Shown here: piece after piece, positions 6,392 to 15,254 of the stretch
Layout: each line of letters starts with the position of its first letter
Numbering within the stretch: the stretch's first letter is position 1
Assembly: GCA_964645535.1 (NCBI GenBank)
Contig: CAZYCQ010000018.1
Coordinates: 18,249 to 33,502, forward strand
Reading direction: 5' to 3'
From: an uncultured archaeon
GTDB lineage: Archaea > Asgardarchaeota > Heimdallarchaeia > Heimdallarchaeales > Kariarchaeaceae
Length of the DNA: 15,254 nucleotides
Program-made: the position numbers and the translations under genes
The notes under the pieces: model-generated
Seen by the model: the letters and a program-made list of their open reading frames with translations, nothing else
Databases searched by the model: none
Told to the model about the DNA's origin: nothing

Positions 6392-7396
6392 ATTACAGCA
6401 CGTACAAAACATTCACCACATAGAAGTAGTTTAGGATATAGAAGGTCTCGTGCAAGCAGTCACAAACCAAAGGTAAGAGGTTGGCCAAAATACGAAGGTG
6501 ATCCCAAGATTCTGGCATTTCCTGGTTTCAAAGCAGGAATGACCCGACTGATCTATAAAGAGGATTCTCCTAAGTCACACCTCGCCAATACAGACAGAAT
6601 TACTGCTGTGACTGTGATCGAAACACCTCCTGTCATTCTGATGGGTATGAGGACTTACAAACAGACACCTTATGGTCTGAAGATTCTGGCAGAAGCCAAA
6701 ATTCAAAGTCCTTCAAAGCACATCAAGAGAATCAAAGTAAGATTCCCCGACGAGGAGAAGTATAAGGAACAATTGAAGAAGGTTGAGGAAACCGCTGATC
6801 AGGCTGTACAACTAAGAGCCATTATTCACACCCAACCGGATCTTACAGGCATCGGAACCAAGAAACCAAGTATCTTTGAAATCCGAGTCGGTTGCAGGAA
6901 TGCTTCAGAAGGTATCGAATGGTTGAAGGAACGGATGGGCAAAGAACTTCAAATTGAAGATTTCACCAAACCTGGACAATATGTCGATGTTATCGGCATC
7001 ACTAAGGGTAAAGGTTTCCAAGGTCCCGTTAAAAGACATGGTGTAACCCTTCTTCAGCATAAATCCAAGCACACCAAGAGGGGTGTGGGTTCAATAGCCC
7101 CTTGGACTCCTGCAAGGGTTCAATGGGTTTTGCCCCGCTATGGTCAATTGGGTTACTTCCGAAGAACAGAATATAACAAAAGGGTAATGTTGATTGGGAC
7201 AAATCCTGATGAGATCAATCCCAAAGGTGATTTCATCAAATACGGCAAGGTCAGGAACCGATATGTTCTGCTCAAAGGTTCAGTCCCTGGACCAAAGAAA
7301 CGGATGGTTATTCTCAGGGACGGTGTCCGAAGTCAGAACAAGCTTATTGCCGAGCCGCGGATCACTTTTGTATCCCAAGAGTCCCACATGCGTTAG
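6392..7396 (+). CDS. rpl3: 50S ribosomal protein L3 (archaeal/eukaryotic type)
   Basis: The ORF track starts at ATG 6539. However, the same frame is open from the TGA at 6383-6385 and encodes the conserved L3 N-terminus (ITARTKHSPHRSSLGYRRSRASSHKPKVRGWP...ILAFPGFKAGMT). The only start-like codon is ATT 6392, 6 nt after AGGTGAT (6380-6386). The product call is firm; the start codon is uncertain. Confidence 0.85.
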   Translation: MTARTKHSPHRSSLGYRRSRASSHKPKVRGWPKYEGDPKILAFPGFKAGMTRLIYKEDSPKSHLANTDRITAVTVIETPPVILMGMRTYKQTPYGLKILAEAKIQSPSKHIKRIKVRFPDEEKYKEQLKKVEETADQAVQLRAIIHTQPDLTGIGTKKPSIFEIRVGCRNASEGIEWLKERMGKELQIEDFTKPGQYVDVIGITKGKGFQGPVKRHGVTLLQHKSKHTKRGVGSIAPWTPARVQWVLPRYGQLGYFRRTEYNKRVMLIGTNPDEINPKGDFIKYGKVRNRYVLLKGSVPGPKKRMVILRDGVRSQNKLIAEPRITFVSQESHMR

Positions 7397-7409
7397 GAGG
7401 TAGAAATTA

Positions 7410-8183
7410 ATGGTAAGCGTACTTAATATGAAAGGAAACAAAACCAGAAAGAAAATTGAACTTCCTCCTGTATTCGAAACGGAATATAGGCCAGATGTGA
7501 TCCGTAGAGCCGTTCTCAGCGAACAGACCAAACAGAAACAACCTCAGGGCAGATATCCCTTGGCTGGCAGAATCGTAGCTGCTTCCTCTCTTGGTCCTGG
7601 ACGAGCTATGGCAAAAATCCCTCGGACACATGGAAGTGGGACACCTTCAGCAGGTAGAGGTGCGTTCGTCCACAGTACTGTTGGTGGAAAATTACTCTTT
7701 CCTCCAACCCCTGAAAAAATCATTGTGGAGAAAATTAATAAGAAAGAACACCGTTTAGCTCTGAAATCTGCTATCGCTGCCACAAAAGAAAGGGCATATG
7801 TCGAACAAAGAGGTCATAAGATAAACGAAAAGGTTCAGTTCCCACTCATTATCGAGGAAAAATTCACTGAGCTCTCCAAAACCGCAGAGGTGAAGGCTGT
7901 TCTTGAAAACCTAGGGTTGGGACCTGACCTTGAAAGATGCCAAGTCAAGAAAATCAGGGCTGGAAAAGGTAAACGACGTGGTCGAAAATACAGAAGAAAG
8001 GTCGGTCCCCTCATAGTGGTGACACAAGAATGTCCGCTATCCAAGGCTGCCAAAAATATTCCGGGTGTTGAAGTAATTGAACTCCGCCACATGAGGGTTG
8101 AAAAGCTTGCCCCCGGTGGTGACCCTGCTCGACTTACTGTTTGGACAGAAGAGGCAATCAAAAAGCTTGAGGAGATGGAGTGA
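7410..8183 (+). CDS. rpl4: 50S ribosomal protein L4 (L4/L1e)
   Basis: The archaeal L4 N-terminus is present (IELPPVFETEYRPDVIRRAV) and the gene sits after rpl3. GGAGGT lies 8 nt upstream of the ATG. Confidence 0.9.
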   Translation: MVSVLNMKGNKTRKKIELPPVFETEYRPDVIRRAVLSEQTKQKQPQGRYPLAGRIVAASSLGPGRAMAKIPRTHGSGTPSAGRGAFVHSTVGGKLLFPPTPEKIIVEKINKKEHRLALKSAIAATKERAYVEQRGHKINEKVQFPLIIEEKFTELSKTAEVKAVLENLGLGPDLERCQVKKIRAGKGKRRGRKYRRKVGPLIVVTQECPLSKAAKNIPGVEVIELRHMRVEKLAPGGDPARLTVWTEEAIKKLEEME

Positions 8184-8188
8184 TCAAA

Positions 8189-8449
8189 ATGGAGAACCAT
8201 GAAGTAATTATCAGACCAGTTTTCTCGGAAGCTGTGTATGACCTCATCATGAAGGACAATAAGATCCTTTTCGAGGTCAACAAGAATGCGAATAAGTTCC
8301 AGATCAAAAGAGCGGTGCAGGAACTGTACAACGTCAAGGTTGTCAAGGTGAATACAATGATCACTCCTCAAGGAGTCAAAAAAGCGATTGTCAAACTCGC
8401 TAAGGAATATCCTGCCGACGACCTTGCTGCTGAGCTCAACTTGTTCTAA
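8189..8449 (+). CDS. rpl23: 50S ribosomal protein L23
   Basis: MENHEVIIRPVFSEAV...KFQIKRAVQELYNVKV is typical of L23. The track start at GTG 8180 overlaps the rpl4 stop. ATG 8189 fits the usual L23 N-terminus better. Confidence 0.85.
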   Translation: MENHEVIIRPVFSEAVYDLIMKDNKILFEVNKNANKFQIKRAVQELYNVKVVKVNTMITPQGVKKAIVKLAKEYPADDLAAELNLF

Positions 8450-8462
8450 TGAGGTGACATGA

Positions 8463-9212
8463 ATGGGTAAGAAAATTTTAGTACAGAGACGTGGCCGTGG
8501 TGGACCAGTATTTCGGGCAGCAGGGCATAAAAGAATCGAACCAATAAAATACAGGAAAATCTCACGAGAGGAGATGACTTCTTCGTTCAGCGGAAAGGTA
8601 GTTTCGCTCCACCATGAACCTGGACGGGGTGCACCTCTTGCGAAAGTCCTGTTTGAAGACGGACAAAGTAAATATGTCCTCCCCGCTGAGGGCTTGGCAG
8701 TAGGTGACACAATCTACTATGGTGCTACTGCTGAAATCGCACCAGGCAATGTTTTGCCTTTGAAGTTCATGCCGGTGCGAACCCCTGTGTTCAACATTGA
8801 GTTACGTGCAGGTGATGGTGGTAAATTGGTCCGAACTGCTGGAGCAACGGCCTCCATTGATTCAAAGACCGATAAATGGGTATTTGTCAAACTGCCTTCT
8901 GGAAGAATCAAGAAGTTTCCTCCAGAAGCTCGGGCTACTGTTGGTGTTGTTGCAGGAGGTGGTATCACCAAAAAACCCCTCCTCAAGGCCGGTAACAAAT
9001 ACCACAAGAAACGTGCCAAGGGTCACAAGTATCCTCGTGTCAGGGGTACTGCGATGAACCCAGTCAAACACCCACACGGTGGTGGTGCTCACCAATCTCC
9101 TCCAAGATCGACTACCGTTTCACGGAATGCTCCTCCTGGGAGAAAAGTTGGTCTTATTGCGGCTCGTAGAACTGGTATTAAACGGGGTCGTCAGGCAAAG
9201 ACAAATCAGTGA
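8463..9212 (+). CDS. rpl2: 50S ribosomal protein L2
   Basis: MGKKILVQRRGRGGPVFRA...GTAMNPVKHPHGGG is the hallmark of L2. GAGGTGA lies 5 nt upstream of the ATG. Confidence 0.95.
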   Translation: MGKKILVQRRGRGGPVFRAAGHKRIEPIKYRKISREEMTSSFSGKVVSLHHEPGRGAPLAKVLFEDGQSKYVLPAEGLAVGDTIYYGATAEIAPGNVLPLKFMPVRTPVFNIELRAGDGGKLVRTAGATASIDSKTDKWVFVKLPSGRIKKFPPEARATVGVVAGGGITKKPLLKAGNKYHKKRAKGHKYPRVRGTAMNPVKHPHGGGAHQSPPRSTTVSRNAPPGRKVGLIAARRTGIKRGRQAKTNQ

Positions 9213-9221
9213 TTTGAATAT

Positions 9222-10019
9222 TTACTTAATCCGTATTTTCTTCCGAAACGAAAAATCAATTGGATTATCTTCCAGATTTATTTCTTCAAGATTTGGACAT
9301 AGCTTGATTAGATTTGATGGTACTTCTGTCAATTCATTTCCGGAAAGATCAAGCTTTTTCAAACTATATAATTCTTTTTTGGAACCAATTTTCAAGGTCA
9401 CCAAATTATTCTCTGAAAGATTCAATTCAACAAGGGAAAGGGGCAATTGCATCAAATCAAAAGAGAAGAGTCGATTCCCTCGTAGGTTGAGCCTTGCCAC
9501 TTCCATTCCTTGGAAAAATCCATCCGGTATACTCGAAATCTCGTTATTGGACAGATCTAGAATATCCAGATCCAGTGTTTTTACAAGGTTCGATCGAATT
9601 TCATTCAGTGCATTCCTATGCAAATCAAGTATGCGAAGATTTCGAAGATGATTAAATGTGCCCTCTTCAATTTGTCTGATCCTGTTTTCCCCGAGAAAAA
9701 GCTTTTCTAGCTCTCTGTTATTCCAGAAAAGTTGTTTTGGAATACATTCCAATCGGTTACGGGAAAGATTGACTTCCTTCAGATTTGGCATTTTTGCAAA
9801 AAAGTGGTCAGGAACTGTGTTAAGGTCATTTAGCTGGAGATCAATTTTTTCAAGATAAGGTAGCCGAAGTTTTAGTGAAGAGGGAATCTCAACCAGTCTC
9901 ATCTCAGAAAGATAAAGTTCCACAACTCTAATTTCCCCGTCTACCTGTCGTGTGACGATCTGGTTCCGTGAAATCCCCAAGTGCCTGATCAAACTCTGTA
10001 TCTGTTCCGAATCATCCAT
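9222..10019 (-). CDS. Leucine-rich repeat (LRR) protein, about 9-10 repeats, no other recognisable domain
   Basis: There are consecutive units of about 24 aa matching LxxLxLxxNxLxxIP. Examples are LEKIDLQLNDLNTVP, LKEVNLSRNRLECIP, LEKLFLGENRIRQI, LRILDLHRNALNEI, LDILDLSNNEISSIP, LVELNLSENNLVTL and LKKLDLSGNELTEVP. No signal peptide is evident. Confidence 0.85.
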   Translation of the reverse strand: MDDSEQIQSLIRHLGISRNQIVTRQVDGEIRVVELYLSEMRLVEIPSSLKLRLPYLEKIDLQLNDLNTVPDHFFAKMPNLKEVNLSRNRLECIPKQLFWNNRELEKLFLGENRIRQIEEGTFNHLRNLRILDLHRNALNEIRSNLVKTLDLDILDLSNNEISSIPDGFFQGMEVARLNLRGNRLFSFDLMQLPLSLVELNLSENNLVTLKIGSKKELYSLKKLDLSGNELTEVPSNLIKLCPNLEEINLEDNPIDFSFRKKIRIK

Positions 10020-10916: not shown

Positions 10917-13871
10917 ATGCTTAAAAACATAAAAGCTCTGTTCGGATTTGAAAATATGTCAATTTCCCTTCCCCATGCTATCCCTCTTGATGAATTGTTG
11001 TCTCAGCTCCATACTGACAGGCGATCTGGTCTAAACCTCCAAAAAGTAAGGGAACACTACCGGAAATATGGGGAAAACGAAATAATCACAAAATCTCCCA
11101 GCATTTGGAAGATATATCTAGCCCCGCTTTTTGATGTTCTTATCACCATTTACCTGATCATGACTGGATTTTTGGTCATTCTGGCGATCTGGTATCCGCC
11201 AATTCTTGGCCAAGTTCTTTTTTGGCTTTCAATTATCGCCTTCAACATGGCAATCGCTATTTTTCAACAATTTCGTGCTCAGAAGAAACTAGATGCCTTA
11301 CGTAATCTTTCACCACCCAAGGCAAAAGTCATCAGGGAAGGAGTTGTGTCTGAAATTGATGCCAAATTTCTTGTTCCGGGTGATCTTGTTATCCTTGAAT
11401 TAGGCGACCGGGTTTCTGCGGATATGAGAATTCTTTCATCCGTCAACCTCACGGTTAATGAAGCATCGCTTACTGGAGAAAGCAAGGCAGTAAACAAGGT
11501 TGAAGATGGCTCTATCCGACTGCCTGAAGACACCCCAATTGCCGAAAGAAAGAATATGCTCTATATGGGAACCTTCATACAAACTGGAAATGCTAGAGCG
11601 ATTGTCTGTAACACCGGCAATGACACTGAACTTGGATCCATTGCCCAAGAAATTTCTGAAATGCAATCATTGGAAATTCCCTTGCGAAGCAGGGTTAATG
11701 CCATTGCAAAAAAACTTGTGGCTGTCATGCTTGTCCTTTTTGTAGCCTCAGTTATCTTTAAATTCTATATCCGAATTACCCACCATCTTCCCATGACTCC
11801 AGAAGCCATCTCCCAAGATCTTGTTCAGAGTATTATCACAGCTATGTCAGTGATGCCAATCAACATCCCACTCCTGACAACAATAATCCTCATCACGGGT
11901 GTTGTACGTATGGCTCAGGAAAATGTAATCGTCAAGGAACTGTCCGTAATCGAAACCTTGGGGCGGACATCTGTTCTGTGTTCTGACAAGACTGGAACCA
12001 TGACCACTTCAAAAATGGCTGTTTCACGGATCTGGGATACGGAAAACTATTATGCCGTCAAATTTGATGAAATTGGAACCGTTTCAATCTATCAAATCGA
12101 TGAGACCATGAAACGGGATGCAACAGAGCTTGAACAGTTCCTCTTTACTCAAATGAACCAAGTACCGAGAGATTCTGCACTTGAACTTCTCCTCACTGCA
12201 ACAACTCTGAATAATGACGCCAATCTGATCATTGAGGATGTCTACGGTGAAAAGGGCTTGAATCTCTGGGAAGCCGTGGGAAATGCAACAGATGCCGCAT
12301 TTCTTATCCTGTCCTACAGATCCGCTTTAGATCAGGATTATATCCGAAAGAGGTATGTCAAACTTCGTGATTATCCTTTCAACTCAACCGTCAAAAGGAT
12401 GACCAAACTTTTCCATGATACCCTCGAAAATGACTACATGGTATTTTCTAAAGGAGCTGCTGAAGTTCTTCTTCCCCGATGTTCCCAAATCGGCAATGAA
12501 GGACGTCGAAAGGTTAGGGAATTGGGAAATGAAGAAAAAGAGGCTATTCAGAAGGATATTGATAGCTTTGCCAACCTCGGCTACCGTGTGGTTGTAGTTG
12601 CCTATAAAGCAATTGATTCCATCCCTGAATTTGCAAATCCTGATGAAGAACGCAATTGGATGGAAAGTGATTTGACCTTTATAGGATTTGCATGCCTTTT
12701 GGATCCTCCTCGTCCTGGTGTTAAAGAAGCTGTCCGAAAGCTTGACGAAGCTGGGATTTTTCCCATCATGATTACCGGTGATTCTCCAAAAACAGCTTCG
12801 ACAATTGCAGCACAGGTCGGCATCCTTGACCCTGATGAAATAGTCATTGAGGGAAAACAAATTCCGAAACTGTCCGAGGAGGACTTTTTCAAAGTTTCTG
12901 TTTTTGCTAGAGTTTCCCCGCAGGACAAGAAGATCATTGTGGATAAATATCAAAGAAGAGGTGATGTGGTTACTATGACGGGCGATGGCGTCAACGATTC
13001 CCTAGCCATCACCCGTGCAGATGCAGGTGTTGCCATGGGAATCACAGGAACTGAAGTAACCAAAGAATCTGCCGACATTATCTTGGCTGATGATTCGTAT
13101 GTAAGCCTTGTCAAGGGTGTTGAGCAGGGCAGATCTCTCTTTGAAAAAATCCGGATGGTGATCTTCTTTTTCATTGCAGTAAATATTGCTGAAGGTATCG
13201 TTTACTTCTCCACTTCTTTTCTTCCTGGTTTTGTGTTGCTCAATAATGCCCAAAGAGCGTTTATTTTTTCAATAATGCATGGTATCCCTCCAGCAGTCCT
13301 GATCTTTGATTCCATGGATAAGGACATCATGAAGCTCAAACCTCGGCAACACGATGCGGTGATCAACAAACGGCTGTTCATGGCAATGCTCTCTTTCATT
13401 CTGCCCTTCTCAGCAATATTGATCGGTATCTATTTTTTCAGTTACAACGAATATATCCCCCTAACTCAAGTCAATTTGCAAGGCATCACTCCAATATTGC
13501 AAACTGATGGGTCTTCTCTTCATCCAACCTCATATTCGCAAGCTAAGGCACGAACCATGTTGATCGCTTCAATCTACTTGACAGAATCCCTTTTCATCTT
13601 CTCTATTCGGAGAATCAACCAATCATTCCTTCAATCTGTAAAGGATGCTTCTATCTTTGTTTGGTTCATGGTGGTCTTTGGCCCTCTCATCCTGCTTATT
13701 ACTATGTATTTCACTCCCATTCAAATTATTGCTGCTGAGCATGGTTTCAGAGTGGATTTATTGTGGCTTGGCCCTATGGACTGGTTAATTTGCTTATCGC
13801 TTGCTGTTATCCCAATCATTGTGCTTGAATCTTTCAAATCACTTATGCGTAAACAAGAAGTTCAATTCTGA
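10917..13871 (+). CDS. P-type cation-transporting ATPase, P2 (SERCA/PMCA-like) architecture with atypical transmembrane ion-site residues
   Basis: The N-terminal cation-ATPase motif is present (GLNLQKVREHYRKYGENEI). The core motifs are TGES, the phosphorylation site CSDKTGTMTT (Asp codon 11985-11987), KGA, DPPR, MITGD and TGDGVNDS. About 10 TM segments are predicted. An alternative start is ATG 10950. Confidence 0.9.
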   Translation: MLKNIKALFGFENMSISLPHAIPLDELLSQLHTDRRSGLNLQKVREHYRKYGENEIITKSPSIWKIYLAPLFDVLITIYLIMTGFLVILAIWYPPILGQVLFWLSIIAFNMAIAIFQQFRAQKKLDALRNLSPPKAKVIREGVVSEIDAKFLVPGDLVILELGDRVSADMRILSSVNLTVNEASLTGESKAVNKVEDGSIRLPEDTPIAERKNMLYMGTFIQTGNARAIVCNTGNDTELGSIAQEISEMQSLEIPLRSRVNAIAKKLVAVMLVLFVASVIFKFYIRITHHLPMTPEAISQDLVQSIITAMSVMPINIPLLTTIILITGVVRMAQENVIVKELSVIETLGRTSVLCSDKTGTMTTSKMAVSRIWDTENYYAVKFDEIGTVSIYQIDETMKRDATELEQFLFTQMNQVPRDSALELLLTATTLNNDANLIIEDVYGEKGLNLWEAVGNATDAAFLILSYRSALDQDYIRKRYVKLRDYPFNSTVKRMTKLFHDTLENDYMVFSKGAAEVLLPRCSQIGNEGRRKVRELGNEEKEAIQKDIDSFANLGYRVVVVAYKAIDSIPEFANPDEERNWMESDLTFIGFACLLDPPRPGVKEAVRKLDEAGIFPIMITGDSPKTASTIAAQVGILDPDEIVIEGKQIPKLSEEDFFKVSVFARVSPQDKKIIVDKYQRRGDVVTMTGDGVNDSLAITRADAGVAMGITGTEVTKESADIILADDSYVSLVKGVEQGRSLFEKIRMVIFFFIAVNIAEGIVYFSTSFLPGFVLLNNAQRAFIFSIMHGIPPAVLIFDSMDKDIMKLKPRQHDAVINKRLFMAMLSFILPFSAILIGIYFFSYNEYIPLTQVNLQGITPILQTDGSSLHPTSYSQAKARTMLIASIYLTESLFIFSIRRINQSFLQSVKDASIFVWFMVVFGPLILLITMYFTPIQIIAAEHGFRVDLLWLGPMDWLICLSLAVIPIIVLESFKSLMRKQEVQF

Positions 13872-14406: not shown

Positions 14407-14874
14407 TTAATCCGTCGTTATAAGCCCTTTGAGAATGGCCAGACCAATTGAAAGCGTTCCGATAGACCCTATATCTCCAACAGGGAGTTGCACCGATCTT
14501 CCCATGTCCAAGTCTTTTCTGGATAGGCCTGGATCGCTTCCTCCGAATACAATTGCATATTTTCTCCCCTTGATTTGTTCTGCTAGATTTTTATCCAATT
14601 TCTCTTTTCCATAGGGTGGTGGTGCAACAAGAATCACCTCTTCAGGAGAGAAAAGATCAACTACATCCTGTAAAGAATATAGAACCAGAAAATTTGCACG
14701 TTCCTTAAAGGCCAATTTTTGAGCCGCAGGCACCCCCTTCTGTGCCGCAGACCCTTGAGCCTGTGAAATAACCATAGTTTTGTATCCAAGTCCCGAGGCA
14801 ATTCGAACAAATTCCGTACAACGACTTGAAGAGCTTATGTTATGCATAACCACGATCGGCCATATGTCTTCCAT
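14407..14874 (-). CDS. SPOUT-like (alpha/beta-knot) protein of unknown function, archaeal DUF-type
   Basis: The C-terminal IVFGGSDPGLSRKDLDMG..VQLPVGDIGSIGTLSIGLAIL resembles SpoU/TrmH motifs 2-3 (fG.E..GLs ... IP ... SLN...A..I). The gene lies 23 nt upstream of PPAT and is co-directional with it. Confidence 0.4.
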   Translation of the reverse strand: MEDIWPIVVMHNISSSSRCTEFVRIASGLGYKTMVISQAQGSAAQKGVPAAQKLAFKERANFLVLYSLQDVVDLFSPEEVILVAPPPYGKEKLDKNLAEQIKGRKYAIVFGGSDPGLSRKDLDMGRSVQLPVGDIGSIGTLSIGLAILKGLITTD

Positions 14875-14968: not shown

Positions 14969-14975
14969 TTATATA
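14969..14975 (+). promoter_or_regulatory. Candidate TATA box driving the 5S locus
   Basis: TTATATA sits in AT-rich DNA. A start about 25 nt downstream would fall near 15000, just before the leader hairpin AUCAAC-UACG-GUUGAU (15003-15018). Confidence 0.35.
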
Positions 14976-15026
14976 CTATGGCAATTTGATTTGATATGTA
15001 AGATCAACTACGGTTGATATCCGGAG

Positions 15027-15046
15027 GGTTCTCCCACCAGAGAGTT
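15027..15046 (+). other. 5' strand of the predicted bulge-helix-bulge (BHB) processing motif (leader / start of the 5S 3' half)
   Basis: CUCCCA 15031-15036 pairs with UGGGAG 15167-15172. CCAG 15037-15040 pairs with CUGG 15160-15163. AGA 15041-15043 forms a bulge. GUU 15044-15046 pairs with AAC 15157-15159. GGU 15027-15029 pairs with ACC 15175-15177. Confidence 0.55.
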
Positions 15047-15091
15047 AAGCCCGGCATCGGACGACCCATGTACTGATTTCCGCGAGGGATC
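15037..15091 (+). repeat. Direct repeat copy 1 (55 bp, perfect)
   Basis: ccagagagttaagcccggcatcggacgacccatgtactgatttccgcgagggatc is identical to 15200-15254, at an offset of 163 nt. Confidence 0.95.
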
Positions 15092-15165
15092 GGGAAAGGC
15101 GTCACGCTGTGATACGATCACGGTCATAGAGCCGGTGTGCACCCAGAAACATTCCGAACCTGGAT
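15043..15165 (+). rRNA. rrf: 5S rRNA encoded in circularly permuted order: 3' half (15043-15113), ACG triloop (15114-15116), 5' half (15117-15165)
   Basis: 15117-15165 (AUCACGGUCAUAGAGCCGGUGUGCACCCAGAAACAUUCCGAACCUGGA) matches the archaeal 5S 5' half. 15043-15113 (AGUUAAGCCCGGCAUC...GUACUG...CGCGAGGGAUCGGGAA...GCUGUGAU) matches the 3' half. Helix I is AUCACGGU (15117-15124) paired with GCUGUGAU (15106-15113). Helix II is GCCGG (15131-15135) paired with CCGGC (15051-15055). Confidence 0.8.
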
Positions 15166-15177
15166 TTGGGAGTGACC
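15157..15177 (+). other. 3' strand of the predicted BHB processing motif (end of the 5S 5' half / trailer)
   Basis: In order: AAC, then CUGG, then the AUU bulge (15164-15166), then UGGGAG, then UG, then ACC. See the partner strand at 15027-15046 for the pairings. Each 3-nt bulge lies 3' of the 4-bp helix on its own strand, as in canonical hBHBh' substrates. Confidence 0.55.
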
Positions 15178-15205
15178 TGTCCCCGCAAAGGTGCTTTCTC
15201 CAGAG
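15166..15205 (+). other. 40-nt spacer between the 5S 5' half and the second 3'-half copy (trailer of unit 1, or a BHB intron)
   Basis: Its ends can form the same BHB with the second copy. GGGAG 15168-15172 pairs with CUUUC 15194-15198 (two G-U pairs). CUGG 15160-15163 pairs with CCAG 15200-15203. The bulges are AUU 15164-15166 and AGA 15204-15206. AAC 15157-15159 pairs with GUU 15207-15209. Confidence 0.5.
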
Positions 15206-15254
15206 AGTTAAGCCCGGCATCGGACGACCCATGTACTGATTTCCGCGAGGGATC
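15200..15254 (+). repeat. Direct repeat copy 2 (55 bp, perfect, runs to the window end)
   Basis: This is identical to 15037-15091. It contains the BHB strand and the first 49 nt of a second 5S 3' half (15206-15254). Confidence 0.95.

Follow-up and report, generated by a model that had tools for sequence, protein, structure and literature searches.

A probable tandem of circularly permuted 5S rRNA genes in a Heimdall-group Asgard archaeon

The end of a 15,254-nucleotide (nt) stretch of DNA from an uncultured Heimdall-group archaeon (the whole stretch is referred to here as the window) holds two halves of a 5S ribosomal RNA (rRNA) separated by 40 nt across which a motif of the bulge-helix-bulge (BHB) type can be drawn. 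Are these 40 nt an intron, as the headline of an original prediction made from the sequence had it, or do they separate two genes whose halves stand in reversed order? Taken together with the sequence that follows the window and with related loci, the evidence makes it probable that the window ends inside a tandem of at least two 5S rRNA genes that are circularly permuted and belong to a Heimdall-group Asgard archaeon, that the 40 nt are the spacer between them, and that the halves of each unit are rejoined at a BHB.

The 5S halves at the end of the window

A 5S 5′ half, read directly from the sequence, occupies positions 15117 to 15165 (AUCACGGUCAUAG...CCGAACCUGGAU, in full AUCACGGUCAUAGAGCCGGUGUGCACCCAGAAACAUUCCGAACCUGGAU) and is followed by a 40-nt insert without 5S character (15166 to 15205) and then, from 15206 to 15254 (AGUUAAGCCCGGCAUCGG...), by a repeat of the 5S 3′ half already present at 15043 to 15091. 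The two copies form an exact repeat of 55 nt (15037–15091 = 15200–15254) within a wider one of 65 nt at 94% identity (15027–15091 and 15190–15254). The exact length of 55 nt is set by the cut of the window at 15254 and not by the k of the assembler, and the full repeat amounts to 82 nt with 2 mismatches, plus similarity between the sequences upstream. Across the insert, positions 15157–15172 pair with 15194–15209 in a BHB that consists of an outer helix h of 3 base pairs (bp; AAC 15157–59 with GUU 15207–09), a central helix H of 4 bp (CUGG 15160–63 with CCAG 15200–03), two 3-nt bulges (AUU 15164–66 and AGA 15204–06), and an outer helix h′ of 5 bp (GGGAG 15168–72 with CUUUC 15194–98), the last containing two G-U pairs and flanked by a U.U mismatch. 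Canonical cleavage, which falls after the second nucleotide of each bulge, puts the sites after U15165 and G15205. This layout is real and not due to chance, and the original prediction described it correctly: the order of the halves around the 40 nt, the BHB with its GGGAG/CUUUC helix and two G-U pairs, and the splice sites with the 5S that they yield are all as it drew them.

No Rfam family matches the window at its gathering threshold. When the full end of the contig is used (window coordinates 15116 to 15278), the whole 120-position 5S model is aligned with a 44-nt insertion in loop C, scoring 27.2 bits (E = 0.0012) against a gathering score of 38. An Rfam match to STnc350 (E = 7.4) was set aside as weak and due to chance. 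We also rejected the idea that the sequence upstream of the first 3′ half is a relic 5′ half (Rfam, 15006 to 15040, 12.8 bits), as such sequences from 10 loci resemble 5′ halves no better than shuffles do (p = 0.08 to 0.74).

Read as permuted units, each preceded by a leader and followed by a trailer, the locus has the following parts (related loci are designated by L numbers):

14969–14975, + strand: putative archaeal TATA box (TTATATA) of the whole 5S precursor, inferred from sequence
15003–15018, + strand: leader hairpin AUCAAC-UACG-GUUGAU, seen in the sequence and also in L003, L004/L022, and L016, and predicted in precursor folds
15031–15043, + strand: leader 1 side of the unit 1 BHB, with h′ CUCCCA (15031–36), H CCAG (15037–40), and bulge AGA (15041–43)
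15043–15113, + strand: unit 1 5S 3′ half (helix II 3′ strand, loop E, helices IV and V, helix I 3′ strand), from Rfam and covariation
15114–15116, + strand: linker ACG, capping helix I and joining the natural 3′ and 5′ ends, from sequence and folds
15117–15165, + strand: unit 1 5S 5′ half (helix I and II 5′ strands, loop A, helix III, loop C), from Rfam, folds, and covariation
15160–63 and 15164–66, + strand: trailer side of the unit 1 BHB, H CUGG and bulge AUU, with a predicted cut after U15165
15166–15205, + strand: most likely the inter-unit spacer (the "40-nt intron" of the original prediction), made up of trailer 1 and leader 2
15206–15254, + strand: unit 2 5S 3′ half, truncated where the window stops; the contig adds a further 27 nt, and an 82-nt overlap then leads into contig RFHV01001280.1

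Leader 1, for which cleavage is predicted after G15042, has 15157–15172 as its partner. Within the spacer, trailer 1 contributes the h′ strand UGGGAG (15167–72), and leader 2 contributes the h′ strand UGCUUUCU (15192–99), the H strand CCAG (15200–03), and the bulge up to its second nucleotide. Trailer 1 is the complement of leader 1, and leader 2 is that of a trailer 2 (AGAAAGCA) that lies beyond the window, on L020/L019. Compensatory variants of the leader 1/trailer pairing occur in relatives (CUCCUA/UAGGAG in L022, ACCCCA/UGGGGU in L016), whose equivalents of the linker are UACG or UUCG tetraloops. A public gene call places a 59-amino-acid open reading frame over the 5S units on the minus strand (L001 14186 to 14365, equivalent to window 15102 to 15281); it is almost certainly spurious.

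The window lies in contig RFHV01000650.1 of the metagenome-assembled genome (MAG) GCA_003696825.1, labelled "Methanobacteriota archaeon." The product of the window's P-type ATPase gene (10917 to 13871) is 100% identical to a protein of that MAG, and its other close relatives with names are labelled Heimdallarchaeota or Kariarchaeaceae. This contig extends 27 nt past 15254 (GCUGUAUUACGAU; contig end ...GGGAAAGGCGUCACGCUGUAUUACGAU), and copy 2 is thereby a complete 3′ half, with GA changed to AU in its helix I strand relative to copy 1 (GCUGUGAUACGAU). The last 82 nt of the contig overlap exactly with a second contig of the same MAG, RFHV01001280.1 (L020), which beyond the overlap reads UACGGUCAUAGAGCCGGUGUGCACCCAGAAACAUUCCGAACCUGGAU AAGAAAGCAACUGUUGCAUUAUUUUUUUG (the continuation begins UACGGUCAUAG...CCUGGAU, then AAGAAAGCAACUGUUGCAUUAUUUUUUUG) and then enters an RsgA-like GTPase gene. 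Downstream of copy 2 there is thus a linker and then another 5′ half, after which come trailer 2, perfectly complementary to leader 2 (15192–15199) over 8 bp, and a T-run. Extension past 15254 had been proposed as a check, and what it returned (the rest of the 3′ half, then a linker and another 5′ half) is the tandem array of permuted units that the original prediction had kept as its fallback.

Logan unitigs (k = 31) of the same sequencing run stop at window position 15066, which is 30 nt past the last base that separates leader 1 from leader 2, and another unitig starts 30 nt before trailer 2 departs from the 5′ half. Because unitigs break where the leaders merge and where the trailers split, the raw reads contain two left and two right contexts. 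The Logan contig of a relative with 87% identity ends at the same base.

A tandem is also present in a relative with 75% identity, which has been assembled twice (L004 and L022, the GTPase in L022 being 100% identical). The ENA scaffold L022 carries the same tandem between the DUF2122 and GTPase genes, in the order leader 1, unit 1, a diverged 40-nt spacer (UUUAGGAGCACCUGUCCAAGCAAAGCUGCUUUCUCCAGAA), unit 2, and trailer 2. In L004 (WAKA01000061.1), a single unit has leader 1 and trailer 2. We rejected an initial reading of L004 as a clean single unit in the closest relative whose sequence spans the locus: it combines the unit 1 3′ half with the unit 2 5′ half, producing an A.C mismatch in helix II, and its leader-trailer pair is not complementary. 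As L022, an independent scaffold of the same organism, shows the tandem, we take L004 to be a collapsed assembly. The tandem is therefore real and predates the split of the window organism from the organism of L022. Public assemblies collapse or mis-join the tandem at L004 9990 to 10200 and at L020 1 to 4; a true single-unit subpopulation may also exist.

The window organism, L004/L022, and L016 share the order of a DUF2122 gene (RecB-family nuclease; 14407 to 14874, − strand), the permuted 5S, and the RsgA-like GTPase gene (L020 209 to 1003, + strand), some homologues of the latter being named "ribosome biogenesis GTPase A" at JGI. Either neighbor could be involved in 5S maturation.

The permuted unit in Heimdall-group archaea

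We searched for the permuted unit with a pattern in which AGUUAAGCC lies 58 to 86 nt upstream of G(C/U)CAUAG, itself upstream of (C/U)CGAACC. Among GTDB representative genomes this returned 14 loci, 11 of them real, of which 10 are labelled as Heimdall or Kari group and one only as "archaeon." Two permuted loci exist in each of the closed genomes of Candidatus Heimdallarchaeum aukensis and Ca. H. endolithica (L007 and L015 in CP084166.1; L011 and L014 in CP084167.1), and the further GTDB loci are L006, L009, L013, and L016 to L018. The same pattern gave about 14 more loci in JGI metagenomes. Chance matches were dropped by eye (L005, L008, L010, and a recurrent soil sequence represented by L023, L025, and others), as were L029 and L041, which are normal bacterial 5S genes with a chance AGTTAAGCC upstream.

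Every one of the roughly 25 loci consists of a 3′ half, a linker of 3 to 6 nt, and a 5′ half, after which the sequence is unrelated; a second 3′ half downstream is absent from all of these single-unit loci. With so many related loci built as one permuted unit and lacking a 3′ half after it, the permuted unit is the conserved gene. Rfam returns no gathering-level 5S match in 12 permuted loci, nor in the window and 14 related loci, a shortfall that is expected given that the gene is permuted. A metagenome scan for the tandem junction (CGAACCTGGAT, 25 to 55 nt, CCAGARAGTTAAGCC) had no match, and the general permuted pattern retrieved more single units from metagenomes and no further tandem.

To obtain the 5S sequences, each unit was opened in its linker and joined at the predicted BHB sites; 14 joined units were folded and 13 aligned (alignment A1). 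By minimum free energy (MFE), most of the 14 adopt the canonical three-arm 5S fold, composed of helix I, helices II and III with loops B and C, and helices IV and V with loops E and D. The consensus fold of A1 has 27 pairs, 15 of which show compensatory double changes, and 98.3% of its cells are paired, a value reached by 0 of 500 shuffles and well above that of slid controls (28 to 40%). Helix II pairs span the predicted ligation junction and helix I pairs span the linker. The motifs CAUAG (loop A), CCGAAC (loop C), GUUAAGC, and GUACU...GGGAA (loop E) are invariant columns of A1 and agree with the Rfam consensus. As such, the joined units have the three-arm fold and conserved motifs of family RF00001, whereas the genomic sequence stays below its 38-bit gathering score.

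The leader and trailer of each unit form a BHB of their own. Helix H has four of four pairs in all 22 non-redundant units, and these pairs come in five types (CUGG/CCAG, CCCG/CGGG, CUUG/CAAG, CUGA/UCAG, and CUGA/UCGG). For the 11 canonical units, which were cut out by fixed offsets and not fitted to structure, pairing extends to 96.5% of cells, with double changes at 8 of 13 pairs; no shuffle of 500 is as good, and slid controls reach 26 to 52%. In MFE folds of single-unit precursors, all four trailer H nucleotides pair with the leader in 13 of 19 cases, including both units of the window, and the partner is the leader H strand adjoining the 3′ half in 10 of these 13 and a distal copy in the others (L018, L039, and L049). 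The global MFE fold of the 358-nt dicistronic precursor contains neither the cognate BHBs nor the intron BHB. The marks of a permuted RNA gene that the sequence shows are a 3′ part upstream on the same strand, a short linker (3 to 6 nt), and a leader-trailer BHB whose predicted cut sites would give a continuous sequence.

Some leaders (those of L011, L015, L018, L039, L049, and L053, about 45 nt upstream of AGTTAAGCC) contain two copies of the H strand with its bulge. Next to the long h′ strand is a distal copy (UCAG or GCAG, then AAA or UAA) and next to the 3′ half a proximal one (UCGG or CAGG, then GAAA), and a conserved hairpin of about 25 nt (AUCUGGA...UCCAGAU) lies between the two.

In Heimdallarchaeum-type loci, tRNA genes of 82 to 88 nt, probably intron-containing, occur within about 300 nt of the permuted 5S (L011 5530 to 5617, − strand; L007 6779 to 6862; L014 7422 to 7505; L018 7044 to 7125). 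A C/D-box match to SNORD36 (L013 2661 to 2715, + strand; 31.4 bits, just over gathering) lies about 1 kb from the permuted 5S of BWSM_123. Elsewhere in the window, a ribosomal protein cluster (uL3-uL4-uL23-uL2; 6539 to 9212, + strand) is followed directly by a convergent leucine-rich-repeat gene (9222 to 10019, − strand) and not by the usual remainder of the cluster.

Intron, spacer, and other explanations

Since the intron and the permuted unit share their cut sites, only differences between units discriminate between them. Were 15117–15165 and the sequence from 15206 onward exons that are ligated into a linear 5S once a 40-nt BHB intron is removed, the hairpin would be local, with a drawable central helix of 4 bp and two bulges of 3 nt, its cut sites would coincide with those of the permuted reading, and the full-length Rfam alignment with its 44-nt insertion would be accounted for. 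We nevertheless consider an intron very unlikely. Not one of the roughly 25 related single-unit loci has a 3′ half after its 5′ half, there is neither an exon-intron-exon nor a collinear ortholog among them, and splicing would strand a 3′ half upstream and a 5′ half downstream as orphans. In both tandem genomes, helix I pair 4/120 is C-G in unit 1 and U-A in unit 2, where the intron combination is C.A, and the hybrid 5S has two helix I mismatches (C.A and U.U); in L022, helix II pair 18/62 is U-A in unit 1 and C-G in unit 2, where the intron combination is U.G. Leader 1 and trailer 1 are CUCCCA/UGGGAG in the window and CUCCUA/UAGGAG in L022, and the leader 2 strand is CUUUCU in both; because leader 1 alone (C to U) compensates for the change of G to A in trailer 1, the "intron" helix gains an A.C mismatch in L022. 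These three unit-specific covariations link a 5′ half with its own upstream 3′ half or a trailer with its own leader, and none runs across the "intron." The helix that would close the intron is weak (two G-U pairs and the U.U mismatch), and the gain in free energy on cofolding (ΔΔG) in the window organism is −9.5 kcal/mol for trailer 1 with leader 1, −9.3 for trailer 2 with leader 2, and −5.4 for trailer 1 with leader 2. L022 behaves alike; overall, cognate duplexes range from −9.3 to −10.8 kcal/mol, about 4 kcal/mol better than the intron duplex. Of the properties of a BHB intron, the geometry is there, whereas the closing pairs are not conserved, the exons are not cognate (at few sites), and the orthologs lack the layout. 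Leader 2 being a diverged copy of leader 1, it is expected to retain some complementarity to trailer 1. The 40 nt most likely represent trailer 1 plus leader 2, that is, an inter-unit spacer and not a dedicated intron, and the headline of the original prediction is disfavored by the single-unit relatives, the cognate covariation, the compensated change in trailer 1, and the duplex energies alike.

Both pathways might also operate, with all four bulges cut and the unit 1 5′ half sometimes joined to the unit 2 3′ half, giving a minority of hybrids beside the circles. The four bulges share H (CUGG/CCAG) and h (AAC/GUU), their ends are compatible, and the duplex of trailer 1 with leader 2 is still favorable; we judge such mixed processing unlikely, as selection has kept leader-trailer, helix I, and helix II complementarity within each unit, implying that it is the cognate products that matter. 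Cutting at the BHB with no ligation, or no BHB processing at all, would yield a linear 5S that remains permuted, its termini close to helix III and loop B. An unligated permuted 5S has a precedent in brown-algal mitochondria, where the mature RNA is permuted (PMC4267664), and the linkers, as stable tri- and tetraloops, resemble permanent caps, but this outcome appears improbable: the break would sit inside the conserved beta domain, beside helix II, and the precise, covarying BHB geometry is the signature of an endonuclease and ligase substrate, by analogy with the signal recognition particle (SRP) RNA of Thermoproteus (PMC4731332). Finally, the second 3′ half could be an assembly artefact, a loop in the de Bruijn graph at the end of a contig. 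The exact 55-nt repeat in the window does lie at a contig end, and collapsed or chimeric versions of the locus are known (L004 and the first 4 nt of L020), but the chance of this is slight, given that 34 unique nucleotides directly link the 5′ half to copy 2, that copy 2 differs from copy 1 in helix I, that the tandem recurs in L022, which comes from a different sample and species and whose spacer differs at several positions (including the compensated trailer 1 change), and that the raw-read unitigs branch exactly where a tandem predicts.

Several observations weigh against a tandem of permuted genes processed at canonical BHBs. The join of the two MAG contigs is inferred from the 82-nt overlap and synteny, and the first 4 nt of RFHV01001280.1 (CCCA) are of the leader 1 type and not the leader 2 type; in L022, unit 2 contains a gap of 100 N (although the gap edges abut seamlessly). 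No more than 3 positions distinguish the units in the window organism, and 5 or 6 do so in L022, such that discrimination rests on few sites, and the BHB of trailer 1 with leader 2 is drawable and local and may be kinetically favored. In the Heimdallarchaeum subgroup the leader bulge has 4 nt, making the motif non-canonical, and some leaders of this subgroup have a hairpin insertion of about 30 nt between the h′ and H strands. Canonical cleavage also leaves 3 nt (AUA) in the window-type 5S, where the Rfam consensus has 2 (AA). The discriminating sites, as compared among these sequences, are few but concordant, and the single-unit loci agree with them at a larger scale.

Proposed processing and known systems

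Co-transcription of the two units is probable because the spacer (15166–15205), on inspection of its sequence, contains no TATA-like box and no T-run, a T-run follows trailer 2, and a TATA-like box is situated at 14969–14975. Relatives have an A/T-rich box at this same position (TTAAATA in L003/L004, TTATATA in L016), and the hairpin at 15003–15018 is directly 3′ of the putative transcription start. The precursor would thus run from a promoter upstream of leader 1 to the T-run after trailer 2. The tRNA-splicing endonuclease would cut both 3-nt bulges of each unit (in unit 1, after G15042 and U15165), and an RNA ligase would join ...CUGGAU to AGUUAAG..., with a predicted junction of ...GAACCUGGAU with AGUUAAGCC... 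in the window type and of ...GAACCUGAA(A) with AGUUAAGCC... in the Heimdallarchaeum type. The product would be a closed RNA of 123 nt comprising a full 5S, whose helix I is capped by a linker loop of ACG in unit 1, UACG in unit 2 and L018, and UUCG in Heimdallarchaeum. A circular mature 5S that retains the linkers as permanent caps is plausible by analogy with the SRP RNA of Thermoproteus (PMC4731332); the cap may also be re-opened after ligation. We propose tentatively, at somewhat less than even confidence, that the Heimdall group makes its 5S from permuted genes only and that the mature 5S is covalently closed, its helix I capped by UUCG, UACG, or ACG; the spacer of the tandem could also leave in an intron-like manner. 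Splicing endonuclease and RtcB-type ligase are general in archaea, and the window contains the gene of neither.

Among the closest known counterparts is an SRP RNA from Thermoproteus tenax (Plagens et al. 2015, PMC4731332), likewise a universally conserved structured RNA whose gene was overlooked because it is permuted. Its termini lie in a BHB that is cut by the tRNA-splicing endonuclease and ligated into a functional circle, whereas circularity is only predicted here; it is confined to a few Thermoproteus species, whereas the gene described here encodes 5S, occurs clade-wide in Heimdall-group Asgard archaea, and also exists in tandem. Permuted tRNA genes (Cyanidioschyzon merolae and Thermofilum pendens; PMC3978253, PMC3218864) share the upstream 3′ half and the leader-trailer BHB and are processed via a circular intermediate that RNase P and tRNase Z reopen at the natural ends. 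In contrast, the natural ends of the 5S are joined by a tri- or tetraloop linker of 3 to 6 nt, and no reopening activity is evident.

Other archaeal rRNAs also pass through circles. Circular pre-16S and pre-23S and permuted or circular 23S (Pyrococcus, Thermococcus, and other archaea; PMC7758197, PMC12918454, bioRxiv 10.64898/2026.03.23.713588) arise by BHB excision and circularization by endonuclease and ligase; these genes are collinear, with the BHB in the processing stem of their flanks, whereas in the present case the 5S gene itself is permuted and the junction falls within the mature sequence and separates helix III from helix II. A 2026 paper describes 16S and 23S as being processed through circles and 5S as an exception (PMC12918454). 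The BHB introns of archaeal tRNA, 16S, and 23S genes are similar in motif geometry and predicted cut positions but differ in that the 40 nt here lie between two complete permuted units, that the closing helix is neither conserved nor compensated, and that orthologous loci lack the arrangement. In the brown-algal mitochondrial 5S (Valach et al. 2014, PMC4267664), helix I is likewise closed to a hairpin and the gene was missed or misplaced by standard models, although the rearrangement is limited to the alpha domain, the permuted order persists in the RNA, and neither a BHB nor ligation is involved. Circular RNA sequencing detected 5S circles of about 123 nt in Sulfolobus and Halobacterium (Danan et al. 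2012, PMC3326292), but these derive from normal collinear genes, are present at low level and without validation by reverse transcription-PCR, and their meaning is unknown. In our literature search, with most subscription journals outside its scope, no paper described an archaeal 5S gene as permuted or as bearing an intron.

Finding the gene of an RNA as universal as 5S rRNA is ordinarily a trivial matter. For the closed Heimdallarchaeum genomes, however, Wu et al. (2022) stated that the 5S "could not be predicted" (PMC8813620), a failure that a permuted, BHB-flanked 5S gene explains. Annotation by Rfam or hidden Markov models, along with MAG quality criteria that require a 5S, misses these genes throughout the clade, and short-read assemblers collapse or break the tandem form. 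What seemed to be a first 5S intron is most likely not an intron; instead, 5S joins tRNA and SRP RNA on the short list of permuted archaeal RNAs, and the arrangement predicts that, in the archaeal lineage closest to eukaryotes, ribosomes would contain a circular or re-opened 5S.

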